This document shows positions 6,411 through 63,650 of a stretch of 64,000 bases of DNA, one piece after another (position 1 is the stretch's first letter; every line of letters begins with the position of its first letter). The notes under the pieces are model-generated. The model made no database searches. It saw only the letters and a list, made by a program, of their open reading frames with translations, and was not told where the DNA came from. The stretch is taken from the NCBI GenBank assembly GCA_951406725.2, contig OX597828.1, forward strand, positions 54,870,001-54,934,000. The letters run 5' to 3'. Both the position numbers and the translations under genes were made by a program. This DNA comes from Octopus vulgaris (lineage: Eukaryota).

Positions 6411-6456
6411 GATACCTGAAGAAGGCTGGAGCGTACAACAGCCGAAACGTAGTGAA
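6411..6456 (+). ncRNA. Minimal type I hammerhead ribozyme-like motif (Penelope-like element remnant)
   Basis: CTGAAGA-a-GGCTG..CAGCC-GAAAC-GTA. Stem I is weak. Related to the 47527 copy. Confidence 0.6.
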
Positions 6457-10233: not shown

Positions 10234-10852
<619 letters not shown>

Positions 10853-12007: not shown

Positions 12008-13526
12008 ATGGTAAAAAATGAAGCTGATTTTCGTTTCCTTGATGTTGCTGAATGGATGTTTTAGTTTCTCAGCCTTGCTTTCCATGATCTCACAAATACT
12101 GTACACCTTAAAGCTTTCGTTGACACGAAGGGTAGGAAGCGCGCTAATATTGAACCCGGAACCTCATGTATGCCAACCAACCTCTTAACGAACGATACCT
12201 GTAGCAATATTGACATGGAAGTCAGTCAAAAACGTTATATCTAAAATTAGACGCTGCAATTTGACTTCTAGAGAAGACGAAGTACTGCAAAAGAAAAGAA
12301 GGAAGTTAAAACCAACAAGGATTAAACACAAAATGAACTCTTCCAGAATCGTACAAAACAGCGAACTGTTCTGGAATTGTACAAAATATAATGGATTTTT
12401 CCTGAATTGGATAAAACATAATGGACTTTTCTAGAATTGTGCAAAACACGAGCAAAAAAACCCCCCTCATTTACGATTCTTAGGTAAAATAATTTTTAAG
12501 GATACTAAATATAAAGTTAGAGTTTATATATGAAAAGCAAAGTTACTGTTCACTTTAATCTGTATAATATGTCAATAAATAGAGGACGATCTTGAATAAT
12601 GTCGTAGTCTCTTTGCTTTTTGATATAGACACGCACCTATATATGTGTGTATGTTTGTATATATGTATATATGTGCGTGTGTCCACATAAATGTGTGTGT
12701 GGAGTATGTCTGACTCTAGGATTGGTAAGAGATGGGTACATAACGAAGGGCAAAATATCGTAAAATCGATCAATTTTCTCTATTTACAAAGCTATTTACA
12801 AAGAACAAAGATCAATACTTTTGTAAATGTAAGCAAACAATGAAAGGGTTTAATAGAAAGACACTGGAGTGCAATTTTGGATTAAATTGTTTACAGTGTG
12901 AATGATGAAATGTAAAACGAATGAATGATATCGGCAAAAAAAAAAAATAACAGTGAAAAGGAAAAAACACACGGTCAGAAAGCTTGATAAGTTATTCGGT
13001 AAAAGATAAAAAAATACAAAAAGACCCGCAAAACAAACGAACATGAAGTCAATAGTTAGGATATAATAGGTTAGAAATTTCAAGTTGATACTTAAATCTG
13101 CCGCTTCGTAGTCGAAACTGTTTCGGATACAGCTCAAAGCATTTCATGATTTAGGCATCAAGGGAAAGCTAGCTCCAATGGGTCTCTGCGGGCTCTTCGA
13201 ATCTAGCGGGAAAAAGGTGGAAATGTTGACAGTTGCTGGTTTACTGAAACAGTAAGTGACGTACCAAAATATCGAAATATTTATCTTCACACTGGAGACA
13301 TGATTCAAGGGTTTGTTAAAGAAGTCACCCAAGGAGGACCAGATTGTAGTTTTAAATAGGTCGACGGATTAATTCTACAAATTGACAGAGGGTCTCCTCT
13401 ATTTTAATCACAGGTCTTGAGTCAACCCCAGACTGGGGATGTAGACACTTGATCAAGGTGCTATGCAGTAGGATCGAATTAAGATTTATGCGATTGTGAA
13501 GCAAATTTCTTAAGCATGCATCTATA

Positions 13527-13917
13527 GGCGCAGGAGTGGCTGTGTGGTAAGTAGCTTGCTTGCCAACCACATGGTTCCGGGTTCTGTCCCACTGCGTGGC
13601 ACTTTGGCCAAGTGTCTTCTACTATAGCCTCGGGCCGACCAAAGCCTGGTGAGTGGATTTCGTAAACGGAAACTGAAAGAAGCCTGTCGTGTATATGTAT
13701 ATATATATACGTGCTTGTGTGTCTGTGTTTGTTCCCCCAACATCGCTTAACAACCGATGTTGGTGTGTTCATGTCCCCGTTACTTAGCGGTTCGGCAAAA
13801 GAGACCGATAGAATAAGTACTGGGCTTACAAAGAATAAGTCCCGGGGTCGAGTTGCTCGACTAAAGGCGGTGCTCCAGCATGGCCACAGTCAAATGACTG
13901 AAACAAGTAAAGAGTAA
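13527..13917 (+). mobile_element. SINE family A, full length
   Basis: GGCGCAGGAGTGGCTGTGTGG..GGTTCTGTCCC A/B boxes; matches the other copies. Confidence 0.9.
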
Positions 13918-14239
13918 CGAGTACCTGCACTTATGGTTTGTCGAATATCTTTATTGGACCGGCTCAAATATATTAATGCAGAAAGGCAAAGACTAAATGA
14001 ATGCAGTATTGGAAATTCTTGTTCCTAATTTGTGAGTTCAAATCCTCTGTACATGTTTCCTTGTATTCGCCATTCTACATTAACTTATTTGACCGAAATA
14101 AGTCCGTACCACATCAGTTGTCTATAAACAGCAATAAACAGGTGAACTGTCTGATCATTTGGTTAAGTCACCTGTGAAACATAAGTGTACTATCCACAGC
14201 ATTTGGCTACGTTACCGGCGATGTTCCGTTGTGTATATG

Positions 14240-16826: not shown

Positions 16827-16912
16827 ATTTATTATATAGAAGGAGCTTCTACAGGACTAGAACTGTTTCATGAATGAAACAGTTCTAGTCCTGTAGAAGC
16901 TCCTTCTATATA

Positions 16913-16918
<6 letters not shown>
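16827..16918. repeat. Perfect palindrome, 45-bp arms, 2-nt spacer, in (TA)n context
   Basis: 16827-16871 is the exact reverse complement of 16874-16918. Confidence 0.95.
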
Positions 16919-17550: not shown

Positions 17551-18994
17551 ATGTATTTTAAGTAATACTGTGCAGTCCAACGACGTGACCCGATGAAATT
17601 GTTGAAGTAAGCTAGGTGTTCGTTTCCAAGAGCAGACTGGCAAATGTGAATTATCTAGCAGTGTCTATGAGTATCAATATTCAAAAAGAACAGAGAGGTA
17701 GAGTGAGGAAGGAATTCAAAGACTCGAAAGGAAATAATGAGCTAGCAGTGGTTACGAAGCGAGACGAGATGAGGATACAGCTTGACAAAGATCAGATATA
17801 ATGAAAAAACAGAGTTAATAGCTAGCCGGAGAAATAGTGTTGTCAGTTAAATCTAGCGATGAGGGGGGGACAGAGTAGTTGTTCTCAGACATGATAAATC
17901 AGTTAAGAGTGGCAGAGGCAACAGACAGATAAGCATGAGAAAATTAAATGTTGTGGTTAAGGAGTGGAGGTATTAGGAAAATAAAATGCAATGAGAAAAG
18001 AGAATTTCAGTTAAGATAATGAGAAATTATAATGACTTTACATAGTGAGTAAAGACTCAGTAGAATTTATTCCTGCAAGAGAAGATTACATTAGAGAATC
18101 GATTAAATAGAGAGGTCTCATTTTAACATTATATTGTGAGCGATTCCCAGCAACATCATTTACGAACGCGATGATTTGCATTGCAGGGGGTGCAAACACA
18201 ATCTATTGGTTAGGACATGGTATAAAGCGCGCCCTGGGCTTGAAGAAGTGAGTGTAGGTGGCTAGAGAAGTACATTGTTTAGAAGCCCTATTTGAAAAGT
18301 AGCGCAGGTGAGTAAGGTAGCGTTGTCTGAAGTTGATGTAACGCAAGCAGCGTACTTTCCAACTACACGCTCATAGAAATAGGAATTTCTATGTCTTTCT
18401 GACGTCGCTAGTGTATGAATACTAATATCAACGACAGCATGTGACTTTCGTTGACTAATACAGACCCAATCTTCAATAGACCTCTTAAATGTTCTCCATT
18501 TTGTTACCTGAGCCTAAAGAACTAGGTACGTCTTACGAGCCTAAGCAATTATATGTTACGTGGAACCGAATCAAACTTTTTATTAAATAATACACACACG
18601 CACATGTGTATGTGTGTGTGTACCATTATCCAGTCATTTTCCTGTATAGTTAATTGTTAGTCCTACCACTGTATATAGAAGTGTTACTAGTTATGCTTTA
18701 CAGACCATATGTTGGGGAATATTAAGATAAAAAGAAAACCCAACCATAAATAATTAGCTCCCATGTACGTTTCACCATTGTAGTTATTTGGAACTCAACA
18801 CTGGATGTTTCAAGTGCATTTAGAGATGCCTAACTGTAATGAGTCATAAGAGGAACACCATATTGCAATCTGTTACAGAAATCTAATAAAGTGTCCCCCG
18901 GACGATCCATTGCGGTTAAACATCGAAATGCACTTAGAAAATCCAATGCTAAGTTCCATATATCTACAATGGTGAGACGTAAGTAGCAACCAAT

Positions 18995-19364
18995 TATTAC
19001 TTCGGTCTTAGCAAAGGCGGAGGTATTGTTTTCAGTCGTGTTTGTTTGTTTGTCCGTGGACAAGATATCTCAAGAACCGCTGGATGGATTCGGATGAAAC
19101 TTTCAGAGATGTTTGGCCCCCTGACTGGCACGAACTGATTAGATTTTGGGATCGATCCCGTTCTGGATAAGGATTCTGGATTATTTTTCGGTTTTTTCTT
19201 TTACTTAATTTTTGAGAGTGGTCGGGTTCATTTTAGTATTCTCCTTTGTGCGAGCAGTCGAGTTTATTTCAGGTATTCTCATTTTAAAAATCATCTCTGT
19301 GTAACCGTTGAGAGGACGTTGGTGTTGCCTTGGCGGAGGTTTGCGCTCCCTGAGTGCTCTTGTT
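18995..19364 (+). mobile_element. Helentron-associated (HINE/DINE-1-like) element
   Basis: 5' ATTAC(C/T)TC.G..TTAGC..GGCGGAGGT, (GTTT)n, 3' TTGGCGGAGG plus hairpin GCGCTCCCTGAGTGC. Inverted sibling at 24943-25264. Confidence 0.7.
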
Positions 19365-20190: not shown

Positions 20191-20579
20191 TGCTTCTGTG
20201 GATGAACGCAAAATGGTGATATAATTCCAAACAACGTCGGACGAAAATTAGTTTGCTTTGCTCCGTCTTTCTTTGGATTAGTGAAATGGTTAAATATTAT
20301 TCTGATAATTAAAGCTCTCGCTTAAACTCATTAATATTTATTGGTTCATTACAGCGAATAAACTAGTGCCTATTTTATTATTGCGTTATCATGTGACAAA
20401 CGAACCTGGGTAATTTTCCTGTAGTCATTTTTCAAGTTATTTAACCACTTAGTTTCCATTCTCTAAAAGCCTATATATTGTCTAAACTTTGTCGGATCTG
20501 AAGTAACGAAGAGAATATGATTTGCTAAGGAGGCCTAATAAGAACGAAACATGTACGAAATTATGTCCTCACTGCTAAG

Positions 20580-21011
20580 GATCATGGTCTTAAAAATTTG
20601 TCCTATGAAGAAAGGCTGAGGACGCTCGACCTTTATTCTCTAGAAAAACGCCGTCGCCGTGGTGATCTCATTCTCGCCCACAACATCATAAGCGGGAAGT
20701 GTAACCTCTCGAAAGAGCTGTTCTTCACTCCTGCTCCGGAGCGTCGGCTGCGGGGTCATTCCGAAAAGCTCTACCTGCGACGATTTCATCTCAATCGAAG
20801 GAGAGGAGCTTTCTCCGTCCGAGTTGCGGATCCGTGGAACAAGCTGCCAGACGAGATGGTAAAGATGCCGATGACCGCTTTGTTCAAAGCCTCCCTGGAC
20901 CTCAAGTGGCCTGAACTCTTTACATGAACACCACCCTGTACTTAACTCCATGTCCCCCTACATGGCCTTGCTATTTGCTTTTGAGCCAAATTAACTAACT
21001 AACTAACTAAC
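20580..21011 (+). mobile_element. CR1-clade LINE 3' end, 5'-truncated, ORF uninterrupted, (TAAC)n tail
   Basis: LSYEERLRTLDLYSLEKRRRRGDLI..RGHSEKL..FSVRVADPWNKLP is the canonical CR1 ORF2 C-terminus. Confidence 0.93.
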
Positions 21012-25264: not shown

Positions 25265-26271
25265 AATATATTAATATATTAAGATACATTATAATATAGG
25301 TGGTCGTAGCAATTAAATCTAAAAAGATAAAATTAATAAATGAGGGTAGAAAATAGTATCTGCTAGAAATGAAAGTTAAAATTTAATTCGAACAACTAAA
25401 CATGAAATATTCGAGACTGCGAGCAGCAAGCTACAACATCTTTGTTTGGCGAGATAAACTCACAGAATGGAATAGTTTGATGAAATCTTATCACGACATT
25501 TTGAAATTTGATCAATATTTCTTGTTTCTCATCAGAGGTTTCTATAATTACTCCGAGTTAAAGAGAGAGCTTGTCTCCGATTAGTTCGTGAGAAAAACCG
25601 TTGAAAGGCGAGAGCTAACATTTAAATCGGTTAAAGTATATGGTAAAATTTTAGCGCTCACTTTCTCGTGACTTAATAGGAGGTAGGCTTTCTCTTTAAC
25701 CCGGAGTAATTGTGGAAACCTCTGATGAGAAGCAAGATCATATTGATAAGGTTTTATCAAACTACTTCATTCTGTGAGTTTATCTCGCCCAAGAAAGATG
25801 CAGCTTGCTTTTGTGTGGCTGTTCAAGTTACATTTTACTCCCAATTGCAAGAGCTGTTCGGACTTAGCCCGAGTATAAATTTAGTAAAAGGAACGTGTAT
25901 TTGCAAGGTGATTTCTGCAAACACTGACTTCAAGTATTTAATTGCAGCCAAATATCTCGGGGCCCCTTTTATTGAGCCTGGTTGCATTTCATTTATTTCC
26001 GTTCAGCGTCTGACGGTCGTCATAGAGGTGCCCTGTCTCAAAAATTGTCATTCGTAGCCGACGTTCTCTCAACATCGTTCACACGCGACTGACTCGAGCT
26101 CGGAAGTTACAGTGAGGCATTCTTTCGTTAAAAGTAGCAAACTTGCTTACTGTTAAATTACCCGAGCATATGTAAGTCTGCGGTGTGCATTACGTCTCTT
26201 ACCTTCTTTTCTACGTGTGTCTCATGCAAAATCTGTGATGAGCCCGAGTGAGACTGATGACCTGAAGTCGC

Positions 26272-26321
<50 letters not shown>

Positions 26322-26322
<1 letters not shown>

Positions 26323-26513
26323 TCCTTTACTCCTTTACTTGTTTCAGTCAGTTGACTGCGGTCATGCTGGAGCACCACCTTTAGTCGAGCAACTCAACCC
26401 CGGGACTTATTCTTTGTAAGCCCAGTACTTATTCTATCGGTGTCTTTTTGCCGAACCGCTAAGTGACGGGGACATAAACACACCAGCATCGGTTGTCAAG
26501 CGATGAACGGGAA

Positions 26514-26566
<53 letters not shown>

Positions 26567-26725
26567 GTACGACGGGCTCCTTTCAGTTTCCGTCTACCAA
26601 ATCCACTCACTAGGCTTTGATCGGCCCAAGGCTATAGAAGATACTTGCCCAAGATGTCACGCAGTGGGACTGAACCCGGAACCATGTGGTTGGTAAGCAA
26701 GCTACTTACCACACAGCCACTCCTG
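26322..26725 (-). mobile_element. SINE family A copy
   Basis: Reverse match to 13527. Confidence 0.9.
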
Positions 26726-26776
26726 GTGTGTATATTTATGTATATACATGCGTGTGTGTGTGTATATATATATATA

Positions 26777-29432: not shown

Positions 29433-29475
<43 letters not shown>

Positions 29476-29483
<8 letters not shown>

Positions 29484-29869
29484 TCTTTTACTTGTTTCAG
29501 TCATTTTACTTTGGCTATTCTGGAGCACCGCCTTTAGTCGAGCAAATCGACCCCAGGACATATTCTTTGTAAGCCTACTACTTATTCTATCGGTCACTTC
29601 TGCCGCACCGCTAACTTACGGGGACGTAAACACACCAGCATCGGTTGTCAAGCGATGTTGGGGAGACAAACACATACACACACATATATATATATATACA
29701 TACATACATATATACGACGGGCTTGTTTCCGTTTCCGTCTACCAAATCCACTCACAAGGCTTTGGTCGGCCTGAGGCTATAGTAGAAGACACTTGCCAAA
29801 GGTGTCACGCAGTAGGACTGAACCCGGAAGCATGTGGTTGGTAAGCAAGCTACTTACCACACAGCCACT
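29476..29869 (-). mobile_element. SINE family A copy
   Basis: Reverse match to 13527. Confidence 0.9.
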
Positions 29870-30039
29870 GTGGTAAGTAAATTTCCGTTGATCGAAGTTC
29901 ACCAAGTCATATTCGAGAGAAATCTCTAAGTCCATACCGATAAACTAAACAAAATATTCATTAATTATAGACTGATTCGACCGCTGCTTATAATGACAAG
30001 TTTATTCTCTTACCATGGTTCATATTTACTGTTAACTTA

Positions 30040-33091: not shown

Positions 33092-33634
33092 GCATATACA
33101 CAAAGACAAACACGCAAATACACAACAAAAATTGGCAGCGAGTCTCAAAATAGCCGTTTGATGTGCTAGAAATAACAGCTAAATCTTTCTCAAATCGTAC
33201 CAGTTGGGTGGATCTGACTAATATAGTCCTAAATGCATAATATCCCAAAATATGACGGAATGGTCATAACTGGAACGCTTTTGATTACAGATTTACACAC
33301 ATATATACACATACATACGCACACGTACTGACAAATCTCTACAAATATTTAAACATACACATTCATCATCGTGTTACAACAATTCACTCACATACACCCT
33401 CACACAATATACTCGTACACCGAAACACTACTTTTCAATGTAAATATAATACATGAATATATGTGTATAATATATATGTATATTTATCTATGTGCGTATA
33501 CGTGTGTAAATATACATGCACATAAAAATATACATACACTCACACATATAACTATATGTGTGTGTGTGTATGTGTGTGTGTGTGTGTGTGTGTATGTTTG
33601 TGTGTGTGTGTGTGTGAGTGCGTATGTATGTATG

Positions 33635-33711
<77 letters not shown>

Positions 33712-33721
<10 letters not shown>

Positions 33722-34228
33722 GTTTAAGAGACAGAAGCAACTTAATCATCATTGAACGACATTATCTCATTATCCACGATAGGTACATATAGAACTAAAT
33801 ATTAAAATTATCAAAATTAATACTTTCAATTCTTATTCTAAATCATATATTTTACATTATGTAGACTACGCGCGTTTCATGACAATATATTCCTCTATAT
33901 TGCTGAAGTAGAAGGTCTCAAATACAATACCATATTATAATGATTATATTGCCAATCTTCAGGTCTAGATTATATGAACTTATTTTGCTATTTACATCCT
34001 ATATAAAGACATAAATTATATAACTAGAAGTTGTCGGAATAATTTTATTTTAGTAAATAATGAACAGAAGTCTATACAATGCAAAGTATATGATTTAGAA
34101 TAAGAATTGAAGGTATTGATTTTGATAATTTTAATATTTAGTCCTATATGTATCTATCGTGGATAATGTCGTTCAAGGATAATTGAGTTGCTTGAGGGTG
34201 ATTCTGTCTCTTAAACCTATCTATCTAT
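33712..34228. repeat. Imperfect inverted repeat, ~155-bp arms (33712-33867 / 34069-34228)
   Basis: The arms are reverse complements with scattered transitions and small indels. Confidence 0.9.
33862..33967 (-). ncRNA. Type I hammerhead ribozyme (Penelope-like), complete core
   Basis: Minus strand: TAGAC-CTGAAGA-t-TGGCAATATA...TATATTGTCA-t-GAAAC-GCGC-GTA|GTCTA. Stem I is a perfect 5 bp, stem II about 10 bp, and stem III is palindromic (ACGCGCGT). Confidence 0.75.
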
Positions 34229-34337
34229 ATATATATAATACAGTGAGTAATTCATTTTAGTACCACTAAATTGAACTTCTCTCCCCTGTGGACTTGGAAA
34301 TAACTTCTCTAATATTAATATTTATTTTATATGTATG

Positions 34338-34388
<51 letters not shown>

Positions 34389-34396
<8 letters not shown>

Positions 34397-35013
34397 ATAT
34401 TTCGGAATGGTCATATTGCCAGTTTAGCCAATAAAAACACACGCACTATATATTTGGTGTTATTTTGCTTCAGTGATATTTATTTTTTACATTAATCTTA
34501 ATCTTATTTCGGCCAAAGTTCTTTTTTTTTCTCGATTAGATTTATTATTATTATTACTAATATTGTTGTTATACATACATACAAGCATATGTAATGATAA
34601 TAATGGGTGGATGTAAACACATGAATAAAATTAGAACAAAAGCAACAACAACAAAAACAAAATACAAATTACAAGAATGTATATAACCAGAAGATACAAA
34701 TATTACAGGCATCCCCCCCACACACACACTAAATAAACATAGACGCACATAGAGATATAAGCATGCGCAAATGAAGACATACAATAGAAATACAAAATGG
34801 CTGACGGTTAGTAAGGAGAGACACAAGTAAGTGAGAAGAAAACAAAGGACCACTGATGCGGTCACAGGAGTGTGACGAAAGAACTTTGGCCGAAATAAGA
34901 TTAAGATTAATGTAAAAAATAAATATCACTGAAGCAAAATAACACCAAATATATAGTGCGTGTGTTTTTATTGGCTAAACTGGCAATATGACCATTCCGA
35001 AATATAACAATAT
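34389..35013. repeat. Near-perfect inverted repeat, ~135-bp arms (34389-34523 / 34878-35013) between (TA)n tracts
   Basis: Direct reverse-complement comparison. Confidence 0.93.
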
Positions 35014-35066
35014 CTGTTTCAACACACGACTTCACATAAAAAATCTTGCACAACAAATATTTAAAC

Positions 35067-35118
<52 letters not shown>

Positions 35119-35425
35119 CAGTTGTATACAGCCAACTTAACGTGACAGTCTCATAAAGGGAATTACACCACCACTCTTTAGCCCTAGGAAGCATCAACGC
35201 TTCCTGTCGGCCTTGACACATTTCCTGTGTTCTTATATTTGCAAAGGGGAGGCGAGCACCCCCAACAGCTAGGCCTACATCCAGATGCTTGTGTCTCCTT
35301 TGTAAATATAAGAACACAGGAAATGTGTCAAGGCCGACAGGAAGCGTTGATGCTCCCTAGGGCTAAATAGCGGTGCTGTAATTTCCTTTATGGGACTGTC
35401 ACGTTAAGTTGACAGTATACAACTG
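35119..35425. repeat. Inverted repeat, ~130-bp arms, ~45-nt loop, between (TA)n tracts
   Basis: CAGTTGTATAC..CCTTGACACATTTCCTGTGTTCTTATATTT / AAATATAAGAACACAGGAAATGTGTCAAGG..GTATACAACTG. Confidence 0.93.
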
Positions 35426-35677: not shown

Positions 35678-36796
35678 CATACATACATACATAATATATA
35701 TTGCGCAGGAGTAGCTGTGTGGTAAGTAGCTTGCTTACCAACCACATGGTGGTGCTGCTGCTGCTGTTGTTGGTGCTGGTGGTACTGCTGCTGGTGGTAG
35801 TGGTGCTAATGGTTGGAAGTGATGTTGACAATAGGGAGGAGGAGCGATGGTTGTGGTTGTTGGGGATGGTGATTATGATGGTGTGATGGTAGTAGTGGTG
35901 GTGGTGGTGGAGGAGGAGGAGGAGGAGGAGGAGGAGGAGGAAGTCTGATGGTGGTGGTGGTTGGTGATGATGACGACGAAAATGGCAACGACGACGACGA
36001 TGATGATGACGTTATGGTGGTGGTGGTGGTAGTAGTGATGATGTTAATTCTGATAATGATGATTCTTACACGACCGACTTTCCCTTGTAAACCCACAAAT
36101 TTGTTTTTCGTATATTTCACTGTCACAATAAGTATTCATTTCTTTCCATTTTATTTCTGAGAATCATAAATTTACAAATTTACATACAACCACCGAAGAA
36201 TATATTTCATTAAATCGACTCCAGTACTTCTCGGCTATTTATTTTAACTCTGCAATTATGAAAACAAACTCTTAACCTGACTGAACTTGAACTTTCGGAC
36301 AGTCGACTTAATCCGTAGACCTACTTCATTCCGGCCCCTGGACCTCGGATGACATGAGTAGAATTCGTTGCGTAATAAATATTCGAGACAGATCTCCGGT
36401 CTAATGATGCCTCCATCGCAGCAATCTAAGACACCTTGAAAGGGATCATAAGTACTGCGTTTTCGCTTCTAATAAAATGCGAAAATTAATTTTAAAAAAA
36501 GTCCTCTTAGGCGTTTGAAAGGTGACGTTTAGTCTTGGTTTCACATTTTGACACAAGGCCAGCAACTTCGGCAAAGGGGTTAACTTGATTACATCGACTC
36601 CAGTGTTCAAATGATGCTTATCTTAACGACCCCGAAAGGATGTCGGCAAAGTCGGCCTCGGTAGAATTCAAACTCTGCGCGAAACGATTAAGGGAAATAA
36701 CTCTATAAACATTTCGCAAAATAGTTACATCATCTCCCTTTATAATATAAAGATTTTCGTAGCCCAATTTGTGGAAGAAATAGCACACATATGATG

Positions 36797-38703: not shown

Positions 38704-54527
<15,824 letters not shown>

Positions 54528-56355: not shown

Positions 56356-56818
56356 ATATATATGGAAAATAAAGTCAAGCTAGAAAATGCTAAAATAATT
56401 TTATAAAAAACATTTCAGTACCGGTTTCAGTCATTGACTTTTCCAACTGTAAGTATGGAAAACAATTAAAGTTTGGAAAAATTAAAAGAAAAGTTTTTTA
56501 AAAGAATATTTGTAAAGTGTTCAAATACAAGGAGCATTTTTCTTGTTTCTGCCTGTTTCTGTCTCTCTTGTTTATTCTTGTGGGTTCAAGGTCGTAAGAG
56601 TAAACAAGAGACAAAAACAGGCAGAAACAAGGAAAATGCCCCTTGTATTTAAATACTATGTAAATATTCTTTTAAAAAAACTTTTCTTTTATTTTTTCCA
56701 AAATTTAATTGTTTTCCATACTTACAGTTGAAAAAGTGTCAATGACTGAAACCGGTACTAAAATGTTATTTAAAAATTATTTTAGCATTTTCTACCTCGA
56801 CTCTTTTTTCCATATATA
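56356..56818. repeat. Inverted repeat, ~225-bp arms, short loop, in TA-rich context
   Basis: Arms about 56356-56582 / 56593-56818, imperfect reverse complements. Confidence 0.92.
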
Positions 56819-59516: not shown

Positions 59517-59609
59517 CTGTTGATCAAGGGAAGAAAACTATATGGGAAAGTAAGCCATGTTTATCTCACATAAATTAACATATATTGGAGTTAACACACA
59601 CACACACAT

Positions 59610-59995
59610 AGGTGCAGGAGTGGCTGTGTGGTAAGTAGCTTGCTTACCAACTACATGATTCCAGGTTCAGTCCCACTGCGTGGCACCTTGGGTAAGTGTC
59701 TTCTATTATAGCCTTGGGCCGGCCAAAGCCTTGTGAGTGGATTTGGTAGAAGGAAACTGAAAGAAGCCCGTTGTGTATATGTGTGTGTGTTGTATGTCTA
59801 TGTTTGTCCCCCCCCCCCCCCCGCAACATCGCTTGACAACCAATGCTGGTGTGTTTATGTCCCCATCACTTAGTGGGTCAGCAAGAGAGACCGATAGAAT
59901 AAGTACTAGGCTTACAAAGAATAAGTCCTGGGGTCGATTTGCTCGACTAAAGGCAGTGCTCCAGCATGGCTGCAGTCAAATGACTGAAACAAATA
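59610..59995 (+). mobile_element. SINE family A copy followed tail-to-tail by an inverted partial copy (60030-60200)
   Basis: Match to 13527. Confidence 0.88.
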
Positions 59996-60426
59996 ATAGA
60001 AAGAAAGAAGGAACAAAAGAATATAATTTCTTTTACTTATTTCAGTTAATTAGACTGTGGCCATGCTGGGGCACCATTTTGAACAATCTTTTAGTCAAAC
60101 GAATCAACTCCAGTACTTATTCAATCAGTCTCTTTTGCTGAACTGTTAAGTTATGGAAATGTAAACATTCCAACTCCAGTTATCAAGCAGTGGTGGTGGA
60201 CAAAAAGACACATGTACACAGATAATATATACACATATACGTATGTGGGATTGTTGGTATGGCTGTTATTGTATGTGTGGAACAGTATTATAAAACATCC
60301 ATCTGATGTATATATAAATTTAAAATAATAAGGGTGAAAATTGAATATTAATTTGAATTAATATCAATTTAAAACCAGTGGTCTAGCATATTAAAACCCA
60401 AAGATTCAGAAAAATTATATTACATA

Positions 60427-60645
60427 ATATAAGAGGGATGACCACTAAGCGGACATCCATTATGCTAGAAGTAGATCCACTATGGTCTTACCACTAAGAA
60501 AGGAATGTTCTCAGAAAATTTAGCAAACACTCACGTTCTGGTGTTTGCTAAATTCTCTTGAGAACATTCCTTTCTTAGTGGTAAGACCATAGTGGATCTA
60601 CTTTTAGCATAATGTATATCCACGTAGTGGTCATCCCTCTTATAT
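60427..60645. repeat. Inverted repeat, ~104-bp arms, 10-nt loop
   Basis: AGTAGATCCACTATGGTCTTACCACTAAGAAAGGAATGTTCTCA / TGAGAACATTCCTTTCTTAGTGGTAAGACCATAGTGGATCTACT. Confidence 0.93.
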
Positions 60646-62904: not shown

Positions 62905-63650
62905 AGCCTCCCCTGGCACGTAAAAAGCTCTATCTGTACGTGGCCAATACCAGTGCCGCCTTGACTGGCTTCCGTGCCAGTGGCATGTGAAAAGCCCCAA
63001 CCGATCGTGGTCGTTGCCAGCCTCCCCTGGCACATAAAAAGCACCCACTACACTCATGGAGTGGTTGGCGTTAGGAAGGGCATCCACTGTAGAAACACTG
63101 CCAGATCAGACTGGAGGCTGGTGCAACCTCCTGGCTTCGCAGACCCCAGTCAAACTGTCCAATCCATGCTAGCATGGAAAACGGACGTTAAACGATGATG
63201 ATGATGATTTAACGTTAGTTTTTCCATGCTGACATGAGTTGGATAGTTTGACAGGAGCTGACCAGCTGAGGGGTCATTCAGGCCCCCTGTCTGTTTGGCA
63301 TGGTTTCTACAGCTGGATGCCCTTCCTAATGCCGTCCACTTCACAGAGTGTACTGGGTACTTTTACGCAGCACTGGCATGGGTGCTTTTTACATGGCACC
63401 AGCACCTACAAGCCTGTGAGATTAGGGATACTCAGCTGAAGAGGATTGCAGGGGACGAGCCTGTATGCAAGGACAACTACTTACTTAGCTTCACATGTCT
63501 TTTCAAGCACAACAAACCGCCAGGGGTCTCGGTCCCCTGAAATCCCTTCTGTGAGTTCTAACGTCTGTAAATCCTTTCTCACCACTTTGTCCCACGTCTT
63601 CCTGGGTCTACGCCTTCTATATGTTCCCACTCCAATTATAGATCAGCATC
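62905..63650. mobile_element. Tail-to-tail pair of RTE-type 3' ends (+ 62905-63205; - 63207-63650)
   Basis: The minus copy encodes RRRPRKTWDKVVRKDLQTLELT..DRDPWR (RTE C-terminus). Both copies share GGAAGGGCATCCA..CATGGAAAA..ACGTTAAA. Confidence 0.8.

Follow-up and report, generated by a model that had tools for sequence, protein, structure and literature searches.

Judged from its own letters and from those of its relatives, the element described here is an aged copy of an abundant non-coding repeat, made of two 5'-truncated unit pieces that are joined head to head, one of which carries a type I hammerhead motif. It lies in the window, i.e. the whole 64-kb stretch of octopus DNA that was analysed, and in this copy the other piece ends at the predicted cut of the hammerhead. 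The reading as a retrozyme with two arms is highly probable, and we lean slightly towards the view that, in the window copy, the end of arm B marks the 5' end of an RNA that had cut itself. What we present is a single suggestive copy; elements of its kind are already known from animals. The coordinates of its features are collected in Table 1.

Table 1. Features of the two-armed element and its flanks in window coordinates; unit positions are counted from the predicted cut 33867/33866, +1 being the first base 3' of the cut.
Feature	Coordinates	Strand	Basis
Left copy of the target-site duplication (likely), (TATG)3(TA)n	33623..33654	+	Sequence pattern
(CTAT)n/(CT)n microsatellite prolonging the 3' end of arm A	33655..33720	-	Sequence
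Arm A, 5'-truncated unit piece, -202 through the ribozyme to about +155	33712..34069	-	Sibling contigs
Type I hammerhead motif	33862..33967	-	Descriptor scan and shuffles
Predicted promoter	33975..34005	-	Inferred only, from TATA-like box and initiator-like TCA
Head-to-head (5'-5') junction, 1-nt microhomology (A)	34069	.	Loose ends on both sides
Arm B, unit piece from +1 to about +260	34070..34329	+	Contigs bridging 34228
Right copy of the target-site duplication (likely), (TATG)3(TA)n	34330..34391	+	Sequence pattern

Anatomy of the insertion and of its hammerhead motif

Comparison of the window with itself by BLAST pairs 33702-33867 with 34069-34236 as an inverted repeat (82% with gaps, E 6e-49), and in a global alignment of 33712-33867 with 34069-34226 the arms are identical at 137 of 148 aligned bases, with further indels of 8 and 10 nt, which confirms the arms of ~155 bp given in a preliminary description of this DNA. 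The inner limits stated there also hold, the left arm ending at 33867, where the predicted cut coincides with it, and the right arm beginning AGTCTA at 34069, with one A common to both. Since this A fits both arms, and since loose ends occur on both sides, the break lies at the predicted cut or 1 nt before it. The same description placed the end of the element at 34228 and took it for a foldback element, and neither claim survives: the right-hand copy extends ~100 nt past 34228, to about 34329, and the arms are overlapping pieces of a longer unit, with siblings crossing both arm ends. Only 34070-34226 of arm B belongs to the inverted repeat, 34227-34329 being more unit sequence, and arm A is without 9 nt that siblings have behind 34012.

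Concerning the flanks, (TATG)3(TA)n occurs just twice on the plus strand among the 53 TA runs of the window, at 33623 and at 34330, and the insertion is likely to comprise 33655-34329, bounded by this duplicated flank. The duplication is itself a microsatellite, hence its length is uncertain, and the TA run of its right copy also contains the end of a neighbouring element. The microsatellite that prolongs arm A may reflect slippage at the priming site or later expansion; the siblings show loose ends into differing flanks at the place matching it, at 34228 and 34237 among the contigs listed. The unit sequence has a GC content of 26.5%. Self-comparison of the window reveals no direct terminal repeat, and thus no LTRs, the longest stop-free frame within the element has 45 codons, and the window copy holds no open reading frame for a reverse transcriptase (RT) or GIY-YIG endonuclease, the siblings being visible only 30 letters further upstream of 34069.

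The hammerhead motif on the minus strand is composed of a stem I of 5 Watson-Crick pairs (33967-33963 with 33866-33862), the core CUGAAGA at 33962-33956, a 10-bp stem II (33954-33945 with 33889-33880) with a U.U at its base and a 57-nt branched loop, and GAAAC-GCGC-GUA at 33878-33867, in which a 2-bp stem III carries a palindromic GCGC loop and after which the cut is predicted (33867/33866). The descriptor has one strict match in the whole window, and 40 dinucleotide shuffles gave 10 loose matches, none of them combining the palindromic stem III with a Watson-Crick stem I. The type I motif previously noticed in the spacer is thereby confirmed, as no shuffle equalled it. Its assignment to the minimal Penelope hammerheads is in error, given the 10-bp stem II with its branched loop of 57 nt; as modelled, a ribozyme with such a long stem II is of the retrozyme type.

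Duplexing of two copies through stem III is predicted at -15.3 kcal/mol, and the lowest-energy fold of the aged window copy is not the hammerhead (-18.6 vs -15.8 kcal/mol for the constrained fold; z 0.19). Rfam searches returned no hammerhead in the window at the gathering level and none locally at E<=10, where the matches were weak and driven by microsatellites only. The consensus of the loose ends in the family retains the 3' core of the ribozyme. Among the siblings listed, both sides of stem I position 33968/33861 are variable (A-U or C-G) and a wobble is retained in stem II at 33886, the sides being unphased in both cases. The pattern of the ribozyme 3' core has 0 matches in viral contigs and 0 in metagenome contigs; a second pattern met 14 metagenome loci, which are alike over the pattern's own 20-24 letters only and were rejected as chance.

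A second, young two-armed element occupies 34389-35068 in the adjoining TA run. Its arms, at 34389-34524 and 34878-35013, show 100% identity to each other, and the plus arm extends to about 35068; a hammerhead-like motif starts at 34853, with a variant core CUGAUGC, a 6-bp stem II, a predicted cut at 34886/34887 and no Rfam match. The short arm of this neighbour overshoots its predicted cut by 6-9 nt; its template was therefore uncut. A third hammerhead-like motif (CUGAAGA, short GC-rich stem II, GAAACGU) is found at 6416 (+) and 47567 (-) in a different dispersed repeat. The window also contains self-complementary foldback repeats of 90-470 bp (56357-56818, 44916-45207, 35119-35425, 60427-60645, 25425-25809, 63037-63364, 18749-18998 and 16827-16918), in which a relaxed scan met no hammerhead core. 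Other repeats include about ten copies of a dispersed repeat of ~400-450 bp (13520-13920, 26320-26740, 29470-29880, 46350-46810, 53270-53760, 59600-60020 and others), which we take to be an octopus SINE, as is presumably the sequence near 35705, and two 524-bp copies of a young mobile element in opposite orientation (10234-10757 and 49997-50520; 97% identical, 40 kb apart). At 20529-20927 (+), 132 codons without a stop resemble, we assume, the C-terminal end of a LINE reverse-transcriptase protein.

Sibling copies and the position of their breakpoints

Siblings were read from the contigs of seven public sequencing runs of four coded organisms. Contigs matching the element number 717, 852, 430 and 511 in four DNA or unlabelled runs of three organisms, and 511, 790 and 237 in a further set of three runs, of which one is a repeat and which adds the fourth organism. 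Their identity to the window element is mostly 90-95%, and since no contig among those listed closely matches the locus along its length, the sampled runs may come from related species. Summed contig depth was not used as copy number, and "hundreds" of copies is a rough reading. None of the runs listed is recorded as RNA. Run X9, guessed to be RNA, has 28 contigs in 26 of 29 bins, the contigs being without strand or ends and the run without a silent control stretch, and was left aside as evidence of expression.

These contigs run through both arm ends. Those bridging 34228 (e.g. 34099-34277, 34056-34320, 34114-34307 and 34182-34317) reach at least 34307-34320, hence a longer piece begins with the right arm. 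Behind 34069 siblings carry other letters, common to them (7, 6 and 7 contigs; 12, 6, 1 and 6 in the second set), and this shared continuation identifies the spacer as truncated unit sequence: loose ends that precede 34069 carry the ribozyme consensus (8 and 7 contigs), and those behind it carry upstream unit sequence. Joins of unit end to unit start, i.e. head to tail, number 0 among the contigs listed, whose cover ends at 34310-34352. The junction of the window copy is bridged by one contig of run X6 (33872-34149, 37 differences, 19 gaps, 87% alike), which may be an ortholog or a repeat event; of the hundreds of contigs, those listed as crossing position 34070 number one each for X1 and X6 and zero for X3 and X7.

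Siblings covering 33867-34083 include a variant that lacks ~11 nt directly after the cut (two contigs each in X2 and X11, one in X9). Its stem I would break, its depth is several times that of a single contig, and it is possibly an amplified subfamily with a dead ribozyme.

Concerning the breakpoints, 29 joint rows were mapped, drawn from 15 of 30 and 15 of 20 joints together with the tables of letters between them. They comprise 5 unambiguous head-to-head joints, 2 inversions of untold direction, 7 joints of unstated kind, 3 short tandem duplications, of which two represent one event, and 11 same-sense joins, including the ambiguous 33975-34069. Rows marked as skips were taken as head-to-head joins, which is our interpretation of the table categories, and the row 33869-34068, labelled automatically as an inversion, was excluded manually, since it has only 3 reference letters on that side and represents a substitution within an uninterrupted copy.

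Among the joints listed, the five head-to-head ones lie at +50/+103, +24/+113, -20/+120, -165/+200 and -147/+136, and the two inversions of untold direction at +52/+180 and +63/+173. All ends of these seven clear inversions lie more than 19 nt away from the cut (35% of junctions as the 95% upper bound), the nearest being -20 and +24, and one of the seven joints of unstated kind ends at -2. The pile-up of sibling breakpoints at the GUA site, proposed earlier as a check, is accordingly absent among the joints listed. An exact match to the cut is expected by chance at 0.8% per junction; with roughly hundreds of copies, several such coincidences should therefore exist, and a reader would select them. 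Small deletions ending at the cut (-8/0, -2/0, 0/+3 and 0/+14) were excluded, because the reference breaks there and favours them. Some larger same-sense joins (-53/+14, -56/+32, perhaps -78/+18 and -2/+30) take away the cut site or the ribozyme's 3' half; they may stem from jumping on a cut template or from broken alignments of divergent copies.

The joint 33975-34069 recurs in runs X1, X7 and X2, i.e. three runs of two organisms, with no letters between listed in X2. It is ambiguous: arm A may have stopped as in the window copy and been combined with an arm reaching to the predicted transcription start, or the join may lie exactly at the cut. On either reading, breakpoints would fall on predicted RNA ends.

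Proposed route of insertion and competing explanations

A unit length of ~490 nt is suggested by the far 11 letters of the upstream loose end, which within 34069-34345 fit only at 34318 (9/11, background 0.0007 per position), a match that stands in AT-rich DNA. A TATA-like box at 34005-33998 lies 30 nt before an initiator-like TCA, whose A is position 33975, 8 nt ahead of stem I. Such TATA/initiator-like sites occur 2 times in 619 nt of unit sequence and 75 times in 128,000 window positions, and this promoter scan was done after the 33975-34069 joint had been seen. On a 490-nt unit the stop of arm A is at +279, about 18 nt past the start of arm B at +260, while arm B stops at +1. The two arms would thus tile one linear RNA without overlap and with a gap of ~18 nt, which, with that unit length, is the pattern of twin priming; the argument is post hoc and depends on the 490-nt unit.

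The explanation that we prefer, and to which as a whole we give an even chance, is that of a non-LTR retrozyme inserted by a Penelope-type RT primed from both strands of a cut TA microsatellite, one arm having run off the self-cut 5' end of the RNA. Transcription of tandem units would begin at a TATA-type start immediately before the ribozyme; the first ribozyme would cut and the next one stay uncut, and the resulting linear RNA would begin at +1 and exceed one unit in length. One target strand would prime at ~+155 of the second unit and be copied back through the uncut ribozyme, this copying of arm A halting ~18 nt short of the second priming site, and the other strand would prime at ~+260 of the first unit and be copied up to the RNA 5' end at the cut. 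The two cDNA ends would then join over the 1-nt microhomology. Most siblings would be early-stopped products, for which the cut would be the upper limit of one arm and not a family rule.

Parts of this route have precedents, as far as the available text of the cited reports goes. In twin priming, a duplicated target flanks two fragments of opposite orientation between which some sequence is lost (PMC2837659); Penelope-like elements typically bear at their 5' end a 5'-truncated copy in inverse orientation and favour microsatellites as targets (PMC8557442); and a Penelope-type protein cuts AT-rich DNA, extends both target strands and starts at two sites inside the RNA (PMC11167929). At this locus, no Penelope protein was found or linked.

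The view that the inverted arm was copied from a self-cut RNA, already advanced in the preliminary description, stands insofar as the arm does end at the predicted cut and twin priming would explain it; the observation comes from one copy only. Several points argue against it: the selection of a rare coincidence, the overshoot in the neighbouring element, the non-ribozyme lowest-energy fold, the scattered siblings, and results obtained in other animals. In vitro the cut proved dispensable: ribozyme mutants of a lizard Penelope-like element left insertion unchanged, and in the portion of that report available no RNA-seq reads began or ended at the cut (PMC11167929). Frog retrozyme dimers, according to the accessible text, cut themselves in vitro in only 1 of 9 cases (bioRxiv 2026.07.22.740005).

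A competing account keeps the same element and the two-ended priming but takes as template an uncut circle or multimer, or two RNAs, the stop of arm B being due to chance or to a stall at the three-way junction of the ribozyme. We consider it rather unlikely. It accommodates the scatter of breakpoints among the seven clear inversions listed, the neighbour that stops 6-9 nt inside its own ribozyme core, and the circles described as the main RNA form of animal retrozymes in the part of PMC7229834 at hand, at the price of leaving as coincidences both the exact +1/0 end (0.8%) and the stop of arm A ~18 nt from the start of arm B, and of leaving unexplained a sibling joint that falls on both 33975 and 34069. 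It is improbable that the arms instead come from a protein-coding Penelope-like element and represent its 3' ends (pseudo-LTR plus tail), both heavily 5'-truncated. Inverted 5'-truncated copies, a ribozyme near the 3' end, optional tails and microsatellite targets would all fit, going by the available text of PMC8557442, retrozymes are described as deriving from pseudo-LTRs in what is accessible of bioRxiv 2026.07.22.740005, and the visible siblings reach only 30 letters upstream of 34069; yet the unit seems to be closed, at 490 nt, by the fit of those 30 letters to the end of arm B, the long stem II is unlike the minimal Penelope ribozymes in the description of PMC7229834, and there is no coding frame.

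Stronger than the preferred reading is the claim that self-cleavage fixes the inner arm boundary family-wide, and that the element spreads as a foldback unit. The exact coincidence in the window copy, the X6 contig bridging a similar junction, and, among the joints listed, the one of unstated kind at -2 and the ambiguous one at 0 speak for it. This claim is largely refuted and quite improbable, with 0 of the 7 clear inversions listed at the cut, 34070 crossed by so few of the hundreds of contigs in those listed (one in X1, one in X6, none in X3 and X7), and loose ends before 34069 that are intact ribozyme and not foreign flank; the idea that the ribozyme sets the palindrome geometry of the family finds no support, given the same lack of inversion ends within 19 nt of the cut. 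Least credible of all, and very improbable indeed, is that the ribozyme-like motif arose by chance within an assembly artefact or within a DNA transposon (MITE or foldback) that ends in inverted repeats. The window does hold many palindromic repeats, but here the repeat is not terminal: another 100 nt of arm B follow it, and both arm ends are crossed by siblings. The differences between the arms, 11 of 148 sites and two indels, argue against a read artefact, and the hammerhead motif beats the shuffles. A MITE or foldback transposon is moreover refuted by sibling contigs that read upstream sequence, ribozyme and arm in one direction.

Returning to the twin-primed, partly cut template, the window copy could, as a tentative reading that we hold at somewhat below even, be a genomic fossil of hammerhead self-cleavage in vivo, i.e. 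the complete twin-primed copy of a partly cut retrozyme multimer, one arm having run off the cut 5' end and the other having halted at the second priming site. The sibling with the joint 33975-34069 would, as part of the same tentative reading, show the same halt combined with an arm run off the uncut transcription start. If this is true, linear, partly processed RNAs would serve as templates of retrozymes besides circles, and the arm ends found throughout the genome would chart where these RNAs start and are cut in vivo. The circle-template model of retrozymes is presented as a proposal in the available text of PMC7229834, and a genomic excess of arm ends at the cut would show cut linear RNA to be a real template.

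Comparison with known systems

Among titles and the openings of abstracts we found no published description of the element (a retrozyme in octopus) or of the mechanism (Penelope combined with twin priming); subscription literature is thinly covered there, and supplements may list relatives. The likenesses and differences given below follow the available portions of the cited works.

By sequence, the element is best filed as a metazoan non-LTR retrozyme, with cleavage and circles as predictions only. It shares with this group a type I hammerhead, a short, low-GC, non-coding and multicopy unit, and a long target duplication, and such retrozymes are proposed to be moved by Penelope-like elements (PMC7229834; bioRxiv 10.64898/2026.07.22.740005). 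The features that characterise retrozymes are found here as a hammerhead motif, a short non-coding unit with GC below 50%, many copies (237-852 contigs per run) and a target duplication longer than 4 bp without LTRs. The axolotl HHR_Amex2 resembles it by description in the 2-bp stem III with a tetraloop and in the U.U at the base of stem II. The inferred unit of ~490 nt exceeds the 150-450 nt of Cervera and de la Pena (2020, PMC7229834) and falls within the 51-972 nt of Li, Clavereau and Pollet (2026, bioRxiv 10.64898/2026.07.22.740005). It differs from retrozymes in the 57-nt branched loop II and in having two inverted partial units in place of a tandem array.

EN+ Penelope-like elements also have an inverted 5'-truncated copy joined at the 5' end, a hammerhead and a microsatellite target (Craig et al. 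2021, PMC8557442; Frangieh et al. 2024, PMC11167929), as well as two internal 3' ends, one of them optional (PMC8557442; PMC11167929). Here, the inverted 5'-truncated copy is that joined at 34069, with 5 head-to-head sibling joints listed besides, and possible 3' tail ends are the recurrent loose ends of siblings at 34228-34237 among the contigs listed and a second end at ~34329 in the window copy only. In contrast to those elements, ours shows no RT/GIY-YIG frame and its ribozyme is not minimal (PMC8557442; PMC11167929), and its two 3' ends lie ~100 nt apart, against a tail of 30-40 bp (PMC8557442; PMC11167929). On the visible sequence, with no open reading frame and a non-minimal ribozyme, it would not be an autonomous Penelope-like element, and the earlier proposal of a small non-coding, ribozyme-bearing, retroposon-like repeat with Penelope-type anatomy is supported.

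Twin priming of L1 likewise places two fragments of one RNA, in opposite orientation and with a short stretch missing between them, within a duplicated target (PMC2837659, PMC2246262); it differs in that the present element has no poly(A), both its priming sites are internal, and its RNA would be a partly cut multimer (PMC2837659, PMC2246262). Finally, the HDV-like ribozymes of R2 (PMC3774820) and the twister variants of Perere-3 (PMC8501958) offer a parallel in which the cut defines the 5' end of the copied RNA and can be read from genomic junctions. In those systems the cut governs the 5' junction of full-length, protein-coding elements (PMC3774820, PMC8501958), whereas here a hammerhead sits in a non-coding element and would account at best for a minority of arm ends.
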